This document shows, one piece after another, positions 46,495-55,507 of a stretch of DNA of 64,000 bases. Source of the DNA: Limisphaerales bacterium (GTDB lineage: Bacteria; Verrucomicrobiota; Verrucomicrobiia; Limisphaerales; SXTU01); the NCBI GenBank assembly GCA_009773355.1, contig WRPG01000021.1, positions 2,394 to 66,393 on the forward strand, read 5' to 3'. Made by a program: the position numbers and the translations under genes. The notes under the pieces were generated by a model. That model saw only the letters and a list, made by a program, of their open reading frames with translations. It searched no databases and was not told the DNA's origin. Numbering within the stretch: position 1 is the stretch's first letter; each line of letters starts with the position of its first letter.

Positions 46495-46588
46495 AGTAGG
46501 ACAGTGCGTCCCGCCTGTCTTTCTGATTTCAGATCCCGCTCAAGCGGTTTCCTTCAAATGGTAGGCAGGCTGGAAGCACTGTCCTACT
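46495..46588. repeat. ~95-nt palindrome-ended element, copy B of 3
   Basis: agtaggacagtgcgtcccgcctgtc...ccgctcaagcgg...ggcaggctggaagcactgtcctact. The TAG stop of the 46584..48002 gene lies in the terminal arm. Confidence 0.85.
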
Positions 46589-48002
46589 TAACGAACGCGT
46601 AGAGTGCCGTGAGCGTGCGGACGTATATCACGTTTTCCACCAGCGCGGGCGAGGCGGAGATGCGTTCGCTGAATTCCGCCTGGTGCAGAATCTTCGGCGC
46701 GTCGCCGCCGGCATCGAGGACCGTGACCTTGCCGTTCAGCGACGCCACGTAGATGCGCCCGTCCGCCGCGACGGGCGACGCGTAGTAGCTGCCGATGGCG
46801 TTGAGCCGCTCCTGCTGGTAGTGGACCTTGCCCGTCTTCGCGTCGAAGCTCGACGCCAGCCCGCCGTCCTTCACAAGGAAGACGCGGCCGCGATAGTGCA
46901 GCGCCGACGGCACGTAGGGCAGGCCGCGCGTCTGCTTCCACGCCAAGGCGTCCTCGCTCAACTCGCCCTTGCCGCCGGGCTTCACGGCCACCAGCACGTT
47001 CTCGCCCTTGGCCATGTTGGCCGCCAGGGCATCCATGTCTTCTTTGGTGATTTTGCCGTCGCGGTTCACGTCCAGCGAGCGGAAGAACGATTCCATCTCC
47101 GTGCCCTTCATCTCGTCCGGCGTGAGCGCGCCGTCCTTGTTTTTGTCCATCTGCGACATCCCGGCCCACGTCGGCATCGTGTTGGCCTCCTTGCCCGGTG
47201 CCCAGCCGGCGAAGAAGAGCAGGCCGTCGCCGACCACCGGAGTTGTGCAGGTGAAGGACGGCAAGCCCGCCAGCGACCACCGTTCCGCGCCGGTCTTGAG
47301 GTCATAGGCCTTGAGCTTGATGGAGCCGGACATGACGACCTCGTCCACGCCCGCGCTCTTCCAGAGAATCGGCGTGCCGAAGCCGGGACCGACATCTGTG
47401 CGCGGGGCTTCCCATGCTTTCTTGCCGGTCTTCAAGTCCACCGCCAGCAGCGAGCAAGGCCCGGCCTGGTCGCGGTTCACGAGCACCACGCCGCCCGCGA
47501 GCACGGGCGAACCGCCGGAGCCGAAGCTGCCGGGCGACTGGATGGTCGGGAGCTTGTGCTGCCAGAGTTCCTTGCCGCTGAAGTCGTGGGCCACCAGCCC
47601 GGACGAGCCGAAGTAACTGATGACGGTCTTGCCATCGGTTGCGGGAGTGGATGCGGCGGGGCTGCCCTCGGTGGCGTGGAATTCTTCAAGCTGCCCGGCG
47701 GGCGCGGGGCGCTTCCAGAGCAGCTTGCCATCGCGCCGCGCGTAGCAGTGCGTCTCCAGCTTCTTGCCGTCGAAGGTCGTGAGGAAAATCCGGTCGCCCC
47801 ACACGCACGGCGAGGACGCGCCCGAGGGCACGATGTTTTTCCAAAGCTGATTCTTGCCAGGGCCGAACTCGACGGGCGGCTTGGCGGTGTCGGAGACGCC
47901 GGACGCGTTTGGCCCGCGGAACTGCGGCCACCAGGTTTCGGCGGCGAAGAGCGCGGTGTGGACAACGAAGCAGAGGGTGAGGAACAGGGTTTTCACTTTC
48001 AT
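46584..48002 (-). CDS. PQQ-like (BamB-type) beta-propeller protein with an inserted EF-hand pair
   Basis: Signal peptide MKVKTLFLTLCFVVHTALFAA. Repeated propeller strands (SSPCVWGDRIFL, GSPVLAGGVVLV, TTPVVGDGLLFF, ASPVAADGRIYV). Canonical Ca-binding loops DKNKDGALTPDE and DVNRDGKITKED. Confidence 0.8.
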   Translation of the reverse strand: MKVKTLFLTLCFVVHTALFAAETWWPQFRGPNASGVSDTAKPPVEFGPGKNQLWKNIVPSGASSPCVWGDRIFLTTFDGKKLETHCYARRDGKLLWKRPAPAGQLEEFHATEGSPAASTPATDGKTVISYFGSSGLVAHDFSGKELWQHKLPTIQSPGSFGSGGSPVLAGGVVLVNRDQAGPCSLLAVDLKTGKKAWEAPRTDVGPGFGTPILWKSAGVDEVVMSGSIKLKAYDLKTGAERWSLAGLPSFTCTTPVVGDGLLFFAGWAPGKEANTMPTWAGMSQMDKNKDGALTPDEMKGTEMESFFRSLDVNRDGKITKEDMDALAANMAKGENVLVAVKPGGKGELSEDALAWKQTRGLPYVPSALHYRGRVFLVKDGGLASSFDAKTGKVHYQQERLNAIGSYYASPVAADGRIYVASLNGKVTVLDAGGDAPKILHQAEFSERISASPALVENVIYVRTLTALYAFVK

Positions 48003-48079
48003 GGCGGCGGGATTATGCGGAAGGACGCGCGGGAGGCAAGTGTGCGGCGGTGGCATGATGGCACTTTTCGAGTTGCTCA

Positions 48080-48174
48080 AGTAGGACAGCACGTCTCGCC
48101 TGTCCCTCTGACTTTCTGTTTCCGCTCAAGCGGGGCGTTTCAAATGGAGGACAGGCTGGAAGCACTGTCCTACT
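48080..48174. repeat. ~95-nt palindrome-ended element, copy C of 3
   Basis: agtaggacagcacgtctcgcctgtc...ccgctcaagcgg...gacaggctggaagcactgtcctact. Ends 1 nt before the TGA stop of the PfkB kinase gene. Confidence 0.85.
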
Positions 48175-49299: not shown

Positions 49300-50478
49300 T
49301 CACCACTTGTAGCGCGGTTCGGGGTTCGGGTCGCCGATGTCGGGGATGTCCTTCGTCGCGGTGCGGCCGTGCAGCGTTTCCAGCTTGTGGAAGAGGTGAT
49401 GGAGGAAGGCCACGTTGTCACACTGCGCGTAGTGCATCGCGCCGCCCATGCGCGAGAAGCTCTTGCAGAAGCGGAGGTAGTAGGCCGGGTTGTCGCGTGG
49501 CGGCTCGCCCTGGGTCCAGTCCCAGTTGCCGCCGTCCTGCAAGTCCACGACGTAGATGCTGTGGCCGCTGACGATGGGGCGGCCCGCTTGCAGGCGGAGG
49601 TTGTTCACGCAACTGATGCTCTTCTCGAATACCTGCGGCCCCATGATGGCCGAGCCGACGCTCAGCACCACGCCGCCATCGAGCTTCTCCACCGAGCCGC
49701 CGAACAGCGCGAAGTCCACGCCCGCCGCGCGACCGATGACGCCGCCGTTGAACCAAGGGTGGTTCGAGATGATGTCGTAGCCGATGCCGGGGTGGACGGT
49801 GAAGGGCACTTCGTGCCGCGCGGCTTGAGCAAGCACGCTGCTGTTGCGGTGCGGGTGCGCGACGATCTGTGGGCCTGGCTTGAGTCCGAAGCGCTGGATG
49901 GCTTGCAGCAAGTCCGCGCGCGCGGGCGTGAGCGGGTGGCCCGGCTCGGCTTGAATTTGCTTTGTCAGCTCGGCCTCGGTCGGGATGAAGCCGCCGTCCT
50001 CGTAGATGAACTTGCCGAGCGATTTGCCGTAGCCGAAGCCGCGCACGCCGCCGAGCAGCAGCGCGAGGTGGATGTAGCGCCCCGTCTCGTCCCAGGTGCC
50101 GAAGCTGCCGGTGGCGACGTTGTCACGCACGCTCTCGGTGGAGCGGCCCAGCCAAGAGAACTCCCAGTCGTGAATCGTTCCGGCACCGTTCGTTGCGAGG
50201 TGAGTGAGGAATCCGCGGTCGAGCATCTGGCCGAGCAGGAGTTGCCCACCGTTCTTCACGAGATGCGCGCCGTAGATGAACATGACCGCCGCGCCACGCT
50301 CGAGCGCGGCCTTGATGTCGCGGGCGCAGCGCTCGATGAGCGCGGCGTTGAAGTCGCTGACGGGCGGTGGCGTGTTCGTCGGCTCGATGAGCACCTCGTC
50401 CACCGTGCTCAGGCTTTTGCGCTGCGCGAGCGGGAACACGCGGACTTTGGAGAGGTCGAGAGGGTCGGGAGATTGCAT
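49300..50478 (-). CDS. Deoxyhypusine-synthase-like family protein (distant, tentative)
   Basis: ATG at 50478 (MQSPDPLDLSKV...). AAVMFIYGAHLVKNGGQLLLGQMLDRGFLTHLATNGAGTIHDWE parallels the DHS block FLGYTSNLISSG...VDVLVTTAGGVEED. VPFTVHPGIGYDII and GVVLSVGSAIMGPQVFE parallel later DHS blocks (from memory). Confidence 0.45.
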   Translation of the reverse strand: MQSPDPLDLSKVRVFPLAQRKSLSTVDEVLIEPTNTPPPVSDFNAALIERCARDIKAALERGAAVMFIYGAHLVKNGGQLLLGQMLDRGFLTHLATNGAGTIHDWEFSWLGRSTESVRDNVATGSFGTWDETGRYIHLALLLGGVRGFGYGKSLGKFIYEDGGFIPTEAELTKQIQAEPGHPLTPARADLLQAIQRFGLKPGPQIVAHPHRNSSVLAQAARHEVPFTVHPGIGYDIISNHPWFNGGVIGRAAGVDFALFGGSVEKLDGGVVLSVGSAIMGPQVFEKSISCVNNLRLQAGRPIVSGHSIYVVDLQDGGNWDWTQGEPPRDNPAYYLRFCKSFSRMGGAMHYAQCDNVAFLHHLFHKLETLHGRTATKDIPDIGDPNPEPRYKW

Positions 50479-50619
50479 TGAGATTAGAAACCTGATCGTT
50501 GCCAACGCCCAAGTTCGGCGAACATCGCCGTCGGCGCGCAGCGGTTGCAAGGGGCGGTCAGGAAGTTCCAGTAGCCATCTACTTGCCAATCGGTGCGGCG
50601 TTTGGTTGTAGCACGCTCG

Positions 50620-50937
50620 TTAGCTCTCATCGTGTGAACAAGCTAAAGCCTCGGCAGCGAGGCCACGAGCAGTATTGATGCTGTCCGTGTGACTGTTGCT
50701 GCCATACTCATGCCAAAATGCTCCTTGCCCGGCTTCCCAGTCAGTGGTGTCCCACCGTTGAGCGTAAACCCGATACAGGTCACTTTGGTCAACCGTTATG
50801 ATGACGCGCTCTCGCTTGGACTCTGAGTAAATCGTCTCGACGATGCGCTCGCTAGGGAACGAAGGCTGGTCTGCCACATCTGGTGGCGGTGTTGGCCCAA
50901 AGTCAGAAAGGAAAAAACGACGAAAGAAGCCGCTCAT
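50620..50937 (-). CDS. Hypothetical small protein (orphan, lower GC), translationally coupled to the upstream HAD gene
   Basis: ATGA overlap at 50934-50937. MSGFFRRFFLSDFGPTPPPDVADQPSFPSERIVETIYSE... has protein-like composition in an AT-richer stretch. Confidence 0.5.
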   Translation of the reverse strand: MSGFFRRFFLSDFGPTPPPDVADQPSFPSERIVETIYSESKRERVIITVDQSDLYRVYAQRWDTTDWEAGQGAFWHEYGSNSHTDSINTARGLAAEALACSHDES

Positions 50938-51767
50938 ACACTGGCACCTAGCAACAAGGGAACCAACTGCTCGTGACACTCATAATCAGGAATCACCAAG
51001 TCCGCCCCCGCCGCGATGAGCTGCGCGCGCTTCAACTCATGCACGCGACCCGAGCCGATCTCCGTCTCGTCGCTCGCCACGGCGACGGCGAGGCCGCCGA
51101 GTTCCTTCGTGTGGTGCAACTCCACTGGGCCGTCGCCGAAGGAGAGCAGTTGCGCGCCGGGGATCCCTTCCTCGCGCAGGATGCGGTCGAAAACCATCTG
51201 CTTCGAGAAGCGCGTGGGATCCTCATGCCCGCCGTGGATGCGGTCGTCGAAGAAGCGCGCAAGCTCAAGCAACGCGGCTTCCTGCCGCACATACGGCTCC
51301 AACGTGCCGCTGAGGATGTAGAGCTTGAGGCCGCGCCCATGCAGCCGTTCCAGCAACGCGCGCGCGCCGGGCACCACGAAGCTGTCCGGTCCGGCTCCCT
51401 CGCGGATGCGCTGCGAGCGGGCGCGGATGGCGCGTTCGAGGCGCAGCGTGTATTCGGCGAGGTAGAACTGCGGCTCGCGGAGCTGCCCGCCACGCTCGGT
51501 CACGCGTTCCGCGAAGCGCACCATCTGGTGGATGGTCTGCCGGCCGTTGTAGGCCAGGACTTCATGGTGCAACTCCGCGTGCAGGGCGGCCTCGTCCTCG
51601 GCCGTGCGGCGGGGGAGAATCTCCAGAAACATCCCGAGCATGATGTCCGGCCAGCCGTGGCGGAGCAGGGAGAGCGTGCCGTCGAAGTCGAAGACCACAT
51701 GCGTGATGCCGGGACGAGGGTCGAATCCGGGGCAAATCTCAATCGGCGTGGCGGCGGTGACAGTCAT
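50934..51767 (-). CDS. HAD-superfamily hydrolase (phosphatase-like)
   Basis: VVFDFDGTLSLLRHGW (DxD motif), LYILSGT, SFGDGPVE. ATG at 51767 (GTG at 51773 is an alternative). Confidence 0.75.
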   Translation of the reverse strand: MTVTAATPIEICPGFDPRPGITHVVFDFDGTLSLLRHGWPDIMLGMFLEILPRRTAEDEAALHAELHHEVLAYNGRQTIHQMVRFAERVTERGGQLREPQFYLAEYTLRLERAIRARSQRIREGAGPDSFVVPGARALLERLHGRGLKLYILSGTLEPYVRQEAALLELARFFDDRIHGGHEDPTRFSKQMVFDRILREEGIPGAQLLSFGDGPVELHHTKELGGLAVAVASDETEIGSGRVHELKRAQLIAAGADLVIPDYECHEQLVPLLLGASV

Positions 51768-51840: not shown

Positions 51841-51920
51841 CCACACAGATTCAGGCCGGAACACAGATTAAGAAATCGTTCCGCAACGATGAATCGGTGT
51901 TCCGCCCTGAATCTGTGTGG
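51841..51920. repeat. 24-bp-arm palindrome at the 5' end of the MotA-like gene
   Basis: ccacacagattcaggccggaacac - 32-nt loop - gtgttccgccctgaatctgtgtgg (1 mismatch). The listed ATG at 51889 sits in the loop. Confidence 0.85.
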
Positions 51921-53778
51921 GCCTCTGAATTTCGTCTCGCAGCGGCCAGTCAGTCGGAGCACGCTGAAATTGTGGCGCGGGAGCGGAACGGAGTTTTCGG
52001 TCGCGCAGCCCGTCCAATGCCCATTCGTGAACGGCGACGAACATCCCTTCGACCCGACCCGCTGGCGCGCGGTGCGCGCGGCGCGACCGCAGCCGGACGA
52101 GGAGCCGGCGCTGGCAGGGTTGCCGCCGGACTTCCAACGAGTGGCCTTCTTCGCGGTGCTTTCCGGCGTTCTCCTCCTGCTCGGAACTTTGGTGCCGGCG
52201 AACTGGAAGTCGGTTCACCCCGCATTGCTCGAACGCGCGGGTCAGGGGACGCCGACTGCCGCCAGTCTTGGCCTCGCCGCTGTGAATGCACAACGACCGG
52301 GTGTCGCGAACCTCGCGCTCTCGGCGGCGATGACGGTGAAGGATGAGCAGGTCGCGAAGCTGACGGCGGAACTCGCGGCGCTCGAAGCCCAACGCGGCTG
52401 GACGACCTGGGGCGGGCGCGACCCGTTCGTCGAGTCAGTCTTCAAGGACAAGTCGGTCGCCCGGCCCGCAAGCGAAGTCATCCTGCCGTTCTTGCTCACC
52501 GAGACGAACCGTGCGGTATTGCGCGGGTATCTTGCTACATCGCGTTCCCCCGGCGTGCAGGCGATTCTCCAGACTCGTGAGCTGTCCAGCACCACGCAGT
52601 TCGTGCCAGTGAGCCGACCCGGCGGCCAGCCGTTCGAGGCGACGATTCTGCTGACGGCGCTGCTCTATCAGGGGGAACGCTTCTCCGCATTGCTGGCACA
52701 GGACATCCGCGCAGTGGCCGAGAAGGCGAATGAGACGCGGCTCGCGGGCGAGTGGGAAAGCGTCTGCATGGACGTGCTCACGCTGGCCCGGCGGATGGAC
52801 TGGATGCAGCTCTCTGAACTGCTGCGGCAGGTGCCGAGCGCGAAGTCGCTGAATGACTTCGCCCAACTCGCCAAGACCGCCCCGGACAATTTCGCGGTGC
52901 TCTACACTTCATCGTTGCTCACGAAAGCGCCCGACAAAGTCGCCGGCTACCTGCTGCGCTTCGGGAAGACCGGAGCGGACGATTTGACGAAGGCGCTCGC
53001 ACACGGCGAGGGCGCGGTGCGGTTGCTGGTGGAGCGGTCGCTGCCGCTCGGCCCGGCGCGGACGGTGCCGGGCTTCCTCGCGGGCTGGACGCTGGCGGCT
53101 CCGCGCGGGATGCTCACGGCGAAGGTGATTTGCTTTTTGCTGGCGGGATTTGGATTCTTTTTGGTGTGGCGCGAATTGTCACCCGTCCAAACCGGCAGCC
53201 GCTCGACGGCGGGCGCGCGGATGATTCACGGCCAGCGCGCCGTCGTGGCGCTGGCGCTGGGCTTGATGCTGCTGGCGGCGGGTGAACCGTTCCTGCTCAA
53301 GCCGCTTGGCTCGCCGGAATTCCGCCTGCGCTTGAAATTGCCGGTGCTGACCAATTCGCCTGTTCCGACTGACAAAACCGAGACTGCAACTAAAATAAAA
53401 CCGCGTATGGACCTCTCCACCATCCTGAGCGTCGTGCTCTTCGCCGCGCTGCAAGTGGCCGTGTATGCCATCTGCATCATGAAGATCCGCGAGATCGAAA
53501 TGTCCACCGCCTCGCCGCAGCTCAAGATGCGGCTGATGGAGAACGAGGAGAACCTCTTCGACTCCGGCCTCTACGTCGGCATCGCCGGCACCGCCACCGC
53601 GCTCGTGCTGCAAGTGCTGCAAGTCATCGAGGCCAATCTGCTCGCGGCCTACGCCTCGAACCTGTTTGGCATCGTGACGGTGGCGTTCGTGAAGATTCAC
53701 CACGTCCGTGCCGCCAAGCGCCGGCTCATCTTGGAAAGCCAGGCGGAGGCGAACGAGCGGGAGATGGTGGCGGCCTGA
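51889..53778 (+). CDS. Polytopic membrane protein with a MotA/TolQ/ExbB-like C-terminal TM bundle (tentative); start uncertain
   Basis: TM helices at VAFFAVLSGVLLLLGTLV, VICFLLAGFGFFLVW, AVVALALGLMLLAAG. C-terminal trio LSTILSVVLFAALQVAVYAICIM / GLYVGIAGTATALVLQVLQVI / LLAAYASNLFGIVTVAFVKI has spacing and G-x-x-G-T pattern recalling the ExbB/TolQ channel core. ATG 51889 lies inside a palindrome; GTG/TTG starts downstream are possible. Confidence 0.55.
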   Translation: MNRCSALNLCGPLNFVSQRPVSRSTLKLWRGSGTEFSVAQPVQCPFVNGDEHPFDPTRWRAVRAARPQPDEEPALAGLPPDFQRVAFFAVLSGVLLLLGTLVPANWKSVHPALLERAGQGTPTAASLGLAAVNAQRPGVANLALSAAMTVKDEQVAKLTAELAALEAQRGWTTWGGRDPFVESVFKDKSVARPASEVILPFLLTETNRAVLRGYLATSRSPGVQAILQTRELSSTTQFVPVSRPGGQPFEATILLTALLYQGERFSALLAQDIRAVAEKANETRLAGEWESVCMDVLTLARRMDWMQLSELLRQVPSAKSLNDFAQLAKTAPDNFAVLYTSSLLTKAPDKVAGYLLRFGKTGADDLTKALAHGEGAVRLLVERSLPLGPARTVPGFLAGWTLAAPRGMLTAKVICFLLAGFGFFLVWRELSPVQTGSRSTAGARMIHGQRAVVALALGLMLLAAGEPFLLKPLGSPEFRLRLKLPVLTNSPVPTDKTETATKIKPRMDLSTILSVVLFAALQVAVYAICIMKIREIEMSTASPQLKMRLMENEENLFDSGLYVGIAGTATALVLQVLQVIEANLLAAYASNLFGIVTVAFVKIHHVRAAKRRLILESQAEANEREMVAA

Positions 53779-53794
53779 GCCAAATTTCGGAGCC

Positions 53795-55396
53795 ATGAAC
53801 AAGACGCTGCTCCTCATCATCTGCGACTTCCTGTTGCTCAACCTGCTGGCGCTCACGCGCTGGGACAAGGTCGAGCCGGCGGCGACCCGCAAGCCGCCGG
53901 TGCCCGAGGTCAGCGCCAACGCCGCGCGCCAGAACCAGGACCTCGTGGACATGATGAAGCTCGCGTTGGAGCAGGAGCAGGCCACGCGCAACCAGCTTCA
54001 GCAGCGGCTCCAGTTCGCCGAGTCCGACTCGCAGAGCCGGGCGCAGACGCTCGTGCAATTGCAGGCACAGAAGAGCCAGTTGGAGACGAACCTCAAGCAG
54101 TCGCAGACGGCGGCGCAGGACTTGTCCCAGCGCTACGCGGCCGTCGCGAAGCAGGCGGCGGACGCCAAGCAGCAGCAGGACGCGCTCACCGCCGCCATCA
54201 AGAATGTCGAGGCGGAGAAGGCGCAAATGCAGCAGACCGTCGCGGCCAAGCAGGCGGAAATCCAGAAGCAGCAGGTGGCCATCGCGGACTTGGGCAAGCA
54301 ACAGGCCGCCACCGCCCAGCAGGCTTCGAACCTGGCGACCACGGTGCGGGTCGTGCAGGCCGAGAAGGATTTGGTTCGGGAGCAGTTGGAGAAGCAGATG
54401 CAGGCCGCGCTGGCCGCGAAACAGGTGGAGCTGGAGAAGCAGCAGAAGGCGCTCGTCGAGCTGGAGAAGCAGCGGCAGGCCGTGGCCGCGCAGGCCGCGC
54501 AGTTCGCCACCGCCGCGAAGGTCGCCGAGAGCGAGCGCAACCTGCTGCGCGAGAACCTGACCGACTTGAAGAAGGAAGTGGCCGTGGTGCGGCAGGAGAA
54601 AGAGATGCTCCAGTCGCAGACCGCGCGCCTGAGCGAGGGCGTCGGGCAGCTCGCCGCCAAGTCCGGCGAGCTGGCCAAGGAAATCCGCGAGAACACGCCC
54701 ATCAACATGAACCTCATGTTCAGCGAGTTTCTCAGCAACCGCGTGGACGTGGCCGTCTCCGCGCAGCAAAACGTCCTCCTCGGCTCCGGCAACCGGCTCA
54801 AGGAGGTCAAGAGCGTCCTGGTCCACGACGGGCGCACGGTCATGGCCATCGTGCATGTCACCGACACGCCGTTCTCGCTCACCACGCCGCTGGGCATGGA
54901 CCGCGTCATCGCGCGCGTGGCCAAGCCGCCGCAGGTGCTGGGCAGCGGCGCGCTGACCTTCATCACCGCCGACCCGCGCCTCGCCGTCATTCCCGTCAAC
55001 GCGCAGCAGGCGTTGGGGATGGGCGTGAAAATGTATCCGGTGGCGAAGAACCCGTTCAAGTTCACCGAGGCCGTGCTCGTGAACCGCGGCGGCAGGCACT
55101 ACGGCGAGGTCGAGTTCAAGCTCAACGCGGCCACGCCCGGCTACGTGAAGATGCGCAACCGCATCCTCAGCCGCGTGCTGCAAGGCGAGTTCTCCCCCTC
55201 GACCGGCGACATCGTCCTGAGCAAGACCGGCGAGTTCCTCGGCGTGATGGTGAACCCCGATTACTGCGCCGTGCTGCAAACCTTCGAGACGTTGCCCGGC
55301 TACACCTTCGATGAGAAGACCACGACCGACATGGTGCGCAACCGGTTGGTGGAGCTGCAAACACGGGTGGGCCGGCTGCCGTTTTCGCTGCAATGA
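53795..55396 (+). CDS. Single-pass membrane protein with an Asp in the TM helix, ~270-aa coiled coil and beta-rich C-terminal domain
   Basis: MNKTLLLIICDFLLLNLLAL (Asp codon at 53825-53827). Gln/Ala/Lys/Glu-rich heptad region (QRLQFAESDSQSRAQTLVQLQAQKSQLETNLKQ...). C-terminal ~220 aa beta-rich (GDIVLSKTGEFLGVMVNPDYCAVL). Starts 16 nt after the upstream gene. Confidence 0.65.
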   Translation: MNKTLLLIICDFLLLNLLALTRWDKVEPAATRKPPVPEVSANAARQNQDLVDMMKLALEQEQATRNQLQQRLQFAESDSQSRAQTLVQLQAQKSQLETNLKQSQTAAQDLSQRYAAVAKQAADAKQQQDALTAAIKNVEAEKAQMQQTVAAKQAEIQKQQVAIADLGKQQAATAQQASNLATTVRVVQAEKDLVREQLEKQMQAALAAKQVELEKQQKALVELEKQRQAVAAQAAQFATAAKVAESERNLLRENLTDLKKEVAVVRQEKEMLQSQTARLSEGVGQLAAKSGELAKEIRENTPINMNLMFSEFLSNRVDVAVSAQQNVLLGSGNRLKEVKSVLVHDGRTVMAIVHVTDTPFSLTTPLGMDRVIARVAKPPQVLGSGALTFITADPRLAVIPVNAQQALGMGVKMYPVAKNPFKFTEAVLVNRGGRHYGEVEFKLNAATPGYVKMRNRILSRVLQGEFSPSTGDIVLSKTGEFLGVMVNPDYCAVLQTFETLPGYTFDEKTTTDMVRNRLVELQTRVGRLPFSLQ

Positions 55397-55507
55397 CCAG
55401 GCGGCCGGCATCGGGCCGGACCCGCTTGCAAGGCGGTCAATTTATCCCGCGCGTTGGGCAAGCCTTGGGGAGCGGTTCATCGCCGGGCGGGTTAGCCATC
55501 CGTTGGT

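Follow-up and report, generated by a model that had tools for sequence, protein, structure and literature searches.

A conserved two-gene locus of Verrucomicrobiota that may encode a stator-like inner-membrane complex with a stalk-mounted, protease-like head

We describe a pair of genes in a 64,000-nucleotide (nt) stretch of contig WRPG01000021.1 from a Limisphaerales bacterium (the window, in whose numbering all positions are given) and suggest that their products form an ion-coupled, stator-like complex of the inner membrane that moves a stalk-mounted pseudoprotease in the periplasm. The two co-directional open reading frames (ORFs) of the initial annotation, called gene 1 and gene 2 here, are both present and lie on the + strand. 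The 5:2 ion-driven motors power flagella, TonB-dependent uptake, Tol-Pal envelope maintenance, gliding and type IX secretion, and Zorya defence, and each new output module for them is a new route of energy to a compartment free of ATP. The complex proposed here would be analogous to these motors and is not a demonstrated member of their group; we give this interpretation slightly less than an even chance. We found no description of the gene 1/gene 2 family in the literature searched, and the names of both proteins in source records are all "hypothetical protein" or coiled-coil mislabels. The pair and its parts, with transmembrane (TM) helices numbered from the N-terminus, are as follows.

52027-53778 (stop codon included), + strand: gene 1, GTG start, a polytopic membrane protein of 583 amino acids (aa)
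52204-53046, + strand: gene 1 alpha domain (residues 60-340), all-alpha, about 280 aa, with an AlphaFold2 predicted local distance difference test score (pLDDT) mostly above 90
53413-53709, + strand: gene 1 conserved core (residues 463-561), made up of TM4, the ENEENLFD helix, TM5 and TM6
53779-53794, + strand: spacer of 16 nt with a GGAG ribosome-binding site, read directly from the sequence
53795-55396 (stop codon included), + strand: gene 2, a single-pass membrane protein of 533 aa
53804-53857, + strand: gene 2 TM helix (residues 4-21), with invariant Asp11 (53825-53827) and polar residue 16
53912-54661, + strand: gene 2 stalk (residues 40-289), a coiled coil of variable length built from long helices 40-162 and 170-289 (AlphaFold2 prediction)
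54707-55393, + strand: gene 2 head (residues 305-533), an HtrA/DegS-like double beta-barrel (trypsin fold), AlphaFold2 pLDDT about 90

The most conserved part of either protein is the TM helix of gene 2. We confirmed MNKTLLLIICDFLLLNLLAL as the N-terminus of this protein, in which the Asp11 codon is gac. The initial annotation had tied its stator proposal to conservation of this Asp, and the residue is present in all 117 homologues and in the partners of all eight divergent gene 1 relatives that could be compared (125/125). Throughout residues 1-23, the commonest residue has a mean frequency of 0.98 among the 117 homologues and reaches at least 90% at 21 of the 23 positions; on the same measure the coil scores 0.65 and the head 0.71. 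Even the divergent partners begin M-[N/S]-[K/R]-[T/S/P]-x-L-[L/I]-x-x-[C/I/A]-D-F-L-L. Asp11 lies in the cytoplasmic half of the helix, behind a cytoplasmic N-terminus of only three residues; a protein with one N-terminal TM helix and an unvarying Asp within the membrane, encoded beside gene 1, fits the pattern of an ExbD/TolR/MotB-type subunit. The mid-membrane parts of the gene 1 helices contain no conserved basic residue that could neutralise Asp11. Because an invariant carboxylate is thus left in the membrane without a conserved basic partner, we read Asp11 as an ion-binding site rather than an anchor, and because all faces of the gene 2 helix are conserved, we take it to be enclosed by protein.

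The presumed enclosing partner, gene 1, was modelled with AlphaFold2 on a 36-sequence alignment (mean pLDDT 78.8). The model has six helices of TM length, namely TM1 (36-55), TM2 (359-384), TM3 (394-418), TM4 (463-492), TM5 (513-530; GLYVGIAGTATAL) and TM6 (539-560 and onward, in a helix spanning 539-582; AAYASNLFGIVTVAFVKIHHVR), with a disordered linker at 423-459. The three C-terminal helices quoted in the initial annotation therefore exist, and so does the soluble domain that it had placed between earlier TM helices, which occupies residues ~60-340 between TM1 and TM2. No relatives of this alpha domain were found in Pfam, in the PDB profile search or by Foldseek (best E = 0.34). From the positive-inside rule applied to the sequence, both termini and the TM2-3 and TM4-5 loops are predicted to be cytoplasmic and the alpha domain periplasmic; the loop charges fit an N-out, C-in topology for the three-helix core.

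Conservation in gene 1 is concentrated in that core. An alignment of 33 sequences with 27-53% identity to the window protein has 23 invariant columns, 21 of them within residues 463-561, and TM1-3 are poorly conserved. The core includes an amphipathic helix (497-511) bearing the ENEENLFD motif, a TM5 with the sequence GLYVGIAGTA and T522 (53590-53592), and a TM6 of the form AAYASNLFG...K...HVR, whose K556, H559 and R561 stand at or past the cytoplasmic end of the helix. T522 and S544 do not vary, and position 545 is occupied by N, T or S. As modelled, the core would match a minimal ExbB in size and predicted topology.

Mapping the pair across genomes, we found that the two genes are kept together. 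A distribution scan with one genome per species confirmed gene 1 relatives in at least 573 species-level genomes, and 80 loci were kept, whose record titles are overwhelmingly Verrucomicrobiota (Limisphaerales, Pedosphaera and Opitutaceae, including cultured strains). When two loci found earlier are added (82 in all), 77 have a gene 2 homologue as the next gene downstream, in the same orientation, and the other five end 0-259 nt past gene 1; the pair is adjacent in 77 of 77 testable loci. Among divergent gene 1 relatives from metagenome loci (27-35% identical), the partner is directly downstream or overlapping in eight of nine and, where the contig allows, consists of a coiled coil followed by the same C-terminal domain. 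Co-occurrence of the two genes, another point on which the initial annotation had let its proposal depend, was thus seen in close and divergent loci alike. Searched against 1.84 billion representatives, a profile of the gene 1 C-terminal module returned 460 clusters (50% identity) at E<=1e-3, of which 341 passed E<=1e-10 and 197 passed E<=1e-30, and the family itself saturated the search; the 150 matches listed are all either proteins of about 550-600 aa with the module at the C-terminus or shorter pieces, probably fragments, that match the same module. A neighbour search of the related loci revealed no third gene conserved with the pair across lineages. It gave lineage-limited synteny only, with def (peptide deformylase) upstream throughout Opitutales (50 loci) and PhoH/PIN, together with spurious ORF clusters of high G+C content. 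Synteny with def is also seen in two divergent loci of marine metagenomes; in the window, a HAD hydrolase gene takes this place. Taken as a whole, the family is widespread and looks core-genome-like.

Several side observations belong to this survey. The metagenome-assembled genomes (MAGs) L007, L008, L010, L011, L012, L015 and L016 are titled Klebsiella, Proteobacteria or Akkermansia muciniphila, and these titles are probably taxonomic mislabels. A protein 100% identical to gene 2 is on record from a Limisphaerales MAG (Verrucomicrobiota). Two divergent gene 1 relatives, one of them at L103:4001-5773 (P0378), carry EF-hand motifs (Pfam EF-hand_1, best E=4.6e-6), which hints that some versions of gene 1 respond to Ca2+.

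A number of results weigh against a stator, above all the tests of kinship to known families. Neither protein matches any meaningful Pfam, NCBIfam or PADLOC model, and the PADLOC matches of the pair, LmuB and JetC only, are coiled-coil matches. The Pfam scans covered 36 + 33 gene 1 family members and 35 gene 2 members at E<=10 and the window gene 1 protein at E<=1; within these limits, PF01618 matched neither the window gene 1 nor any of the 69 family members. NCBIfam, with its TolQ/ExbB/MotA models (E<=1), and PADLOC gave no gene 1 match. PDB profile searches with two gene 1 alignments (E<=10) returned no ExbB, TolQ, MotA, GldL or ZorA chain, and no such chain stood in the best 50 of 172 Foldseek matches of the full gene 1 model at E<=10 (best E=0.34), which were non-specific helical or transporter proteins at E>0.3. 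Searches with E. coli TolQ, ExbB, MotA, TolR, ExbD, MotB and TolA by tblastn against the window and the 82 loci produced nothing usable for a local profile. An ExbB/TolQ alignment of 14 sequences was therefore made (E. coli TolQ and ExbB plus 12 diverse plasmid-borne homologues), and a hidden Markov model derived from it found 0 of ~80 gene 1 copies among 7545 ORFs at E<=100. For gene 2, Pfam, NCBIfam and PADLOC gave coiled-coil noise only and no ExbD/TolR/MotB match (PF02472, PF13677), and hhalign of its N-terminus against ExbD/TolR N-termini gave P=0.24, the shuffle median. The periplasmic part of gene 2 is a coiled coil plus an HtrA fold, with neither an ExbD-fold nor an OmpA-like domain. 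Thus, the MotA/TolQ/ExbB core that the initial annotation had seen in gene 1 is not demonstrated, there being no significant PF01618 profile or structural similarity, and the profile check that it had suggested for gene 2 yielded no match to ExbD/TolR-type models.

The closest approach to homology is an hhalign comparison of the gene 1 module with ExbB/TolQ, which scored 23.3 (P=0.0055). Its best local match pairs YvGlgGTVxsLi with fiGLFGTVwGIm of TolQ/ExbB, includes the essential Thr145 of TolQ and sets gene 1 LYVGlgGTV opposite TolQ PYIGLFGTV, and the relaxed alignment is colinear, with TM4 on TolQ TM1, TM5 on TM2 and TM6 on TM3. The score was reached by 0 of 200 full column shuffles and by 6 of 200 shuffles within 21-column blocks, which keep the local TM composition; the similarity may therefore reflect composition alone and is suggestive at best. 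A positive control with the single sequence of E. coli MotA gave P=6.9e-5. The equivalence of T522, S544 and residue 545 to ExbB T148/T181 is read off this same alignment, which is not significant. Also on the negative side, a gene 1 relative at L106:1199-2968 (P0299, GCA_964420355.1) has no gene 2 downstream and is followed after 370 nt by an acyltransferase gene on the opposite strand; its partner may be encoded elsewhere or lost.

What stands of the stator interpretation is an architectural analogy, strengthened by the pattern of conservation, whereas homology to known families is not shown. Besides the properties of the gene 2 helix, we favour a stator-like complex because the gene order and tight coupling match those of A-B stator operons, because the gene 1 core resembles a minimal ExbB in size, predicted topology and a Gly/Thr-rich middle helix, and because gene 1 residue 545 co-varies with gene 2 residue 16 and a TolQ-like precedent exists (PMC12204202). 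The two residues change together in nine of nine pairs, N at 545 accompanying N or H at 16, and T or S accompanying S. This co-variation may be a single clade-level event.

In a stator-like complex of this kind, several gene 1 cores would surround a dimer of gene 2 helices, and protons or Na+ would pass by way of Asp11 together with T522, S544 and N/T545, all of them polar. Protonation cycles could then rotate or displace the gene 2 helices with respect to gene 1, and the coiled-coil stalk would transmit the movement into the periplasm, where the protease-like head, probably a non-catalytic peptide- or protein-binding module, would act on an envelope target. With five-fold symmetry, the gene 1 periplasmic alpha domains might form a collar around the stalk. 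As a guess, the physiological role would be envelope maintenance or quality control. A bolder version, toward which we are more doubtful, is that the pair represents a class of ion-driven motor that is orphan in sequence, would have arisen independently or by extreme divergence from ExbB/ExbD, and would be near-universal in Opitutales and in Limisphaerales/Pedosphaera-type Verrucomicrobiota; its force transducer would be the Asp-bearing axle, continued by a coiled-coil shaft and an HtrA-derived pseudoprotease, and turned or pulled within the gene 1 periplasmic collar.

The dimensions of the stalk bear on this mechanism. The AlphaFold2 model of gene 2 (pLDDT 76.9) consists of the TM helix, a low-confidence linker, two long helices and a beta-rich domain. 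The initial annotation had reported ~270 aa of uninterrupted coiled coil; the long helical stretch is there, but it is broken at residues 163-169. Profile matches of the stalk are of coiled-coil type only, such as SMC and myosin tail, and the family alignment has a central block of variable length, total lengths being 463-594 aa. If extended, ~245 helical residues would measure ~36 nm, which exceeds the usual periplasm and counts against the stator interpretation. The break and the variable block are equally compatible with a hairpin of ~18 nm, which would bring the head back near the gene 1 periplasmic domains.

The head itself bears out the "faint trypsin-fold flavour" of the initial annotation. 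Foldseek gave 46 PDB matches at E<=1e-3 with probability 1.00, led by DegQ (1.1e-6) and including Deg2, DegS, HtrA1 and Deg1 at the top; all are HtrA/DegS/DegQ/Deg1-type protease domains except one sobemovirus serine protease. An hhalign comparison with E. coli DegP/Q/S is colinear and not significant (P=0.13), so we take the fold assignment from Foldseek only. PDZ and Trypsin_2 profiles matched none of the 35 gene 2 family members, and gene 2 ends directly after the barrel domain.

This clear HtrA/DegS fold is also an argument for a complex that is not a motor, in which Asp11 and residue 16 merely dock a stalked HtrA-like (pseudo)protease into gene 1, a scaffold, sensor or regulator, with no ion flux. 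We consider this explanation the main rival, somewhat less likely than the stator. DegS itself is TM-anchored, gene 1 is predicted to bear a large periplasmic domain, and all tests of homology to MotA/ExbB and ExbD are negative or marginal. Comparable layouts exist in FtsX-EnvC, where a coiled coil with a degenerate peptidase is bound by the periplasmic domain of a polytopic protein, and in MreC, which combines a TM helix, a coiled coil and protease-like barrels; some homologues are labelled "septal ring factor EnvC" by JGI annotators. However, docking leaves unexplained why a carboxylate without compensation is invariant in 125 of 125 sequences, and why all faces of the membrane helix are conserved above the level of the supposedly functional head. 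Moreover, Pfam models for FtsX (PF02687), MreC, MreD and LytM matched none of the 69 gene 1 and 35 gene 2 family members, and there is no conserved ATPase gene nearby.

Gene 2 could alternatively be an active, regulated serine protease that gene 1 gates or positions, ion coupling being optional, and such a protease could coexist with either a motor or a scaffold mechanism. A triad in an alternative register, H354, D393 and S469, is present in 116, 117 and 110 of the 117 homologues, respectively, and is mostly kept in the divergent partners. Its spacing of 39 and 76 residues is near the ~30 and ~75 of HtrA (DegP/DegS), and H354 sits at the end of the third strand, the place of the catalytic His in this fold. 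Against activity, the HtrA GNSGG motif is replaced by P-S-[T/R/A]-G-D: the canonical nucleophile position 470, just before invariant G471, is filled by T (73 of the 117 homologues), R (21) or A (20), and Pro468 stands where the oxyanion-hole Gly would be. Seven homologues have N, Q or A instead of S469; H354 is replaced by Q in one homologue and by Asp in the divergent partner L100. With these replacements, and with the Trypsin_2 and hhalign results given above, we regard the head as probably non-catalytic and an active protease as unlikely. Finally, a Zorya-related anti-phage defence, in which a MotAB-like ZorAB pair senses envelope perturbation, is very improbable, since the likeness goes no further than the broad scheme of a MotAB-like pair plus a long coiled coil, which in Zorya is cytoplasmic and on the A subunit, and since PADLOC found no ZorA or ZorB, no effector genes, mobile elements or defence island accompany the pair, its housekeeping neighbours differ between lineages, and its presence in at least 573 species-level genomes with stable def synteny in the 50 Opitutales loci is core-gene behaviour.

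The boundaries of the two genes were settled by comparison with relatives. The longest gene 1 ORF runs from an ATG (51889-53778, 629 aa), and the initial annotation had described a polytopic protein of ~600 aa. In an alignment of 10 close relatives, however, the ~110 nt that precede a conserved GTG/TTG (window position 52027) contain indels of lengths not divisible by three, and in-frame conservation begins only at this codon. Because of these indels, this onset of conservation and the lengths of gene 1 homologues (mostly 555-600 aa), we place the start at GTG 52027 and not at ATG 51889; the polytopic ORF ending at 53778 stands, and its annotated start does not. Gene 1 stops with TGA (53776-53778), and gene 2 begins with ATG at 53795, exactly the 16-nt distance first reported, with GGAG just 5' of the ATG. 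The ORF listing gives GTG 53708 for gene 2, which we regard as a mechanical extension only, because the N-terminal MNKT is invariant in 117 homologues. In related loci, the gaps between the two genes are short or the genes overlap. The spacer with its GGAG is consistent with a two-gene operon.

Upstream of the pair in the window lie, in order, an MscS channel, a PQQ/EF-hand propeller, a PfkB kinase and a HAD hydrolase, the last divergent from gene 1; downstream follow an AAA_33 kinase, an amidohydrolase and a DUF1549/DUF1553 protein. This annotation agrees with the original remark that TonB, Pal, flagellar and type IX secretion system (T9SS) genes are absent from the window neighbourhood of the pair. 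The secreted-looking propeller (46584-48092, - strand) joins a PQQ/BamB-like beta-propeller (PF13360, 2.5e-32) with an embedded EF-hand (EF-hand_5, 1.4e-9), an unusual combination. Just upstream of the HAD hydrolase gene, two - strand ORFs at 49300-50589 (392 aa as scanned) and 50620-50979 (119 aa) have no Pfam match at E<=1e-3. High G+C content creates long spurious antisense ORFs in the window, so ORF length alone is no evidence of a gene; examples are a 561-aa ORF almost exactly antisense to gene 2 (53726-55411, - strand) and a 722-aa ORF antisense to the propeller gene.

Two non-coding features precede gene 1.

51841-51920, no strand: imperfect palindrome in the divergent intergenic region between the HAD hydrolase gene and gene 1
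51926-52026, + strand: conserved non-coding leader/promoter region of gene 1, from the alignment of 10 relatives

The palindrome reported at 51841-51920 is real, with 29-nt arms that are 93% complementary and an RNA folding free energy of -48.4 kcal/mol (z = -7.7), but it covers the annotated start of gene 1 and not the true start codon, which lies ~105 nt further 3'. It occurs as a single copy in the window, matched no Rfam family, and is missing from most close relatives, being partly present in one (L009). As an element 5' of the true start that is not conserved, it was rejected as part of gene 1, and it probably does not belong to the pair as such; it could be an operator, or an element inserted in this lineage only. 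Within the leader, TGAATTTC (51926-51933) and, 14 nt on, AGTCAG (51948-51953) do not vary among 10 Limisphaerales-type relatives. The stretch between these blocks has indels whose lengths are not divisible by three, and a conserved 5' untranslated region of ~75 nt with a GC-rich stem follows them. The motifs resemble a promoter of the extracytoplasmic function (ECF) sigma type (GAAT-N18-GTC). The leader motif is not kept in Opitutales loci, where matches fall within the def coding sequence, and the idea of an ECF-type promoter is supported within the Limisphaerales group only.

If the complex is ion-coupled, such motors can escape current profiles and can have as their output a rigid stalk with a protease-like head. 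This would suggest that the handling or quality control of periplasmic proteins is energised in a phylum about whose envelope little is known. Without motor function, the pair is still a conserved envelope complex with an unusual invariant carboxylate in the membrane. Its carriers include cultured hosts (Opitutaceae, Nibricoccus) that are open to genetics.

Among known systems, ExbB-ExbD and TolQ-TolR share with the pair an A-then-B order of tightly linked genes. Like ExbB/TolQ, the gene 1 core is predicted to have three TM helices, running out-in/in-out/out-in, and a basic tail in the cytoplasm; its middle helix bears a G-x-x-G-T motif, and in its last helix a G comes after a small or polar residue. 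Its layout is that of the minimal ExbB of Pasteurellaceae (~150 aa, as in the 152-aa Pasteurella ExbB). Gene 1 differs in adding the N-terminal TM1, the 280-aa periplasmic alpha domain and TM2-3, and its periplasmic loop between the last two helices is ~10 residues shorter. Gene 2 shares with ExbD/TolR the lone N-terminal TM helix whose cytoplasmic half holds an invariant Asp, but it carries a coiled coil and an HtrA-fold domain and has no TonB/TolA/Pal partner. In a published system that occurs in Verrucomicrobia among other phyla, TolQ-like pentamers take up into their pore the Asp-bearing transpore helix of a directly paired protein other than ExbD (PMC12204202). That system likewise has two components without a separate ExbD/TolR, and its Asp-bearing transpore helix is also on the protein with the periplasmic output. 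In contrast, its A subunit is a recognisable tolQ homologue and its output a von Willebrand factor A domain behind a disordered linker, whereas gene 1 is a sequence orphan and gene 2 has a coiled coil plus an HtrA-like domain as its output.

In the gliding and type IX secretion motors GldL-GldM and PorL-PorM, the B subunit (GldM/PorM) has hardly any N-terminus in the cytoplasm, crosses the membrane once and transmits motion away from it through a long, rigid extension in the periplasm, a layout that gene 2 is predicted to share. GldM uses an Arg that pairs with a Glu of GldL, and GldL consists of two TM helices and a cytoplasmic domain. Unlike GldM, gene 2 has a TM Asp, and the pair has no NCBIfam GldL/GldM match and no T9SS genes nearby. 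In FtsEX-EnvC and MreC-MreD, a polytopic protein, with a large periplasmic domain in the case of FtsEX-EnvC, works with a coiled-coil partner that ends in a catalytically dead, peptidase-like domain, and these complexes regulate periplasmic enzymes. The pair would have the same layout, but there is no ATPase partner beside it, and the coiled-coil partners of those systems are without an invariant membrane Asp. Compared with the HtrA family, gene 2 is without a PDZ domain and places ~245 residues of helical stalk between anchor and domain; it shares with DegS the anchoring by an N-terminal TM helix, and with the family at large (DegS, DegP, DegQ and HtrA1; MEROPS S1C) the double beta-barrel fold of its C-terminal 230 residues.

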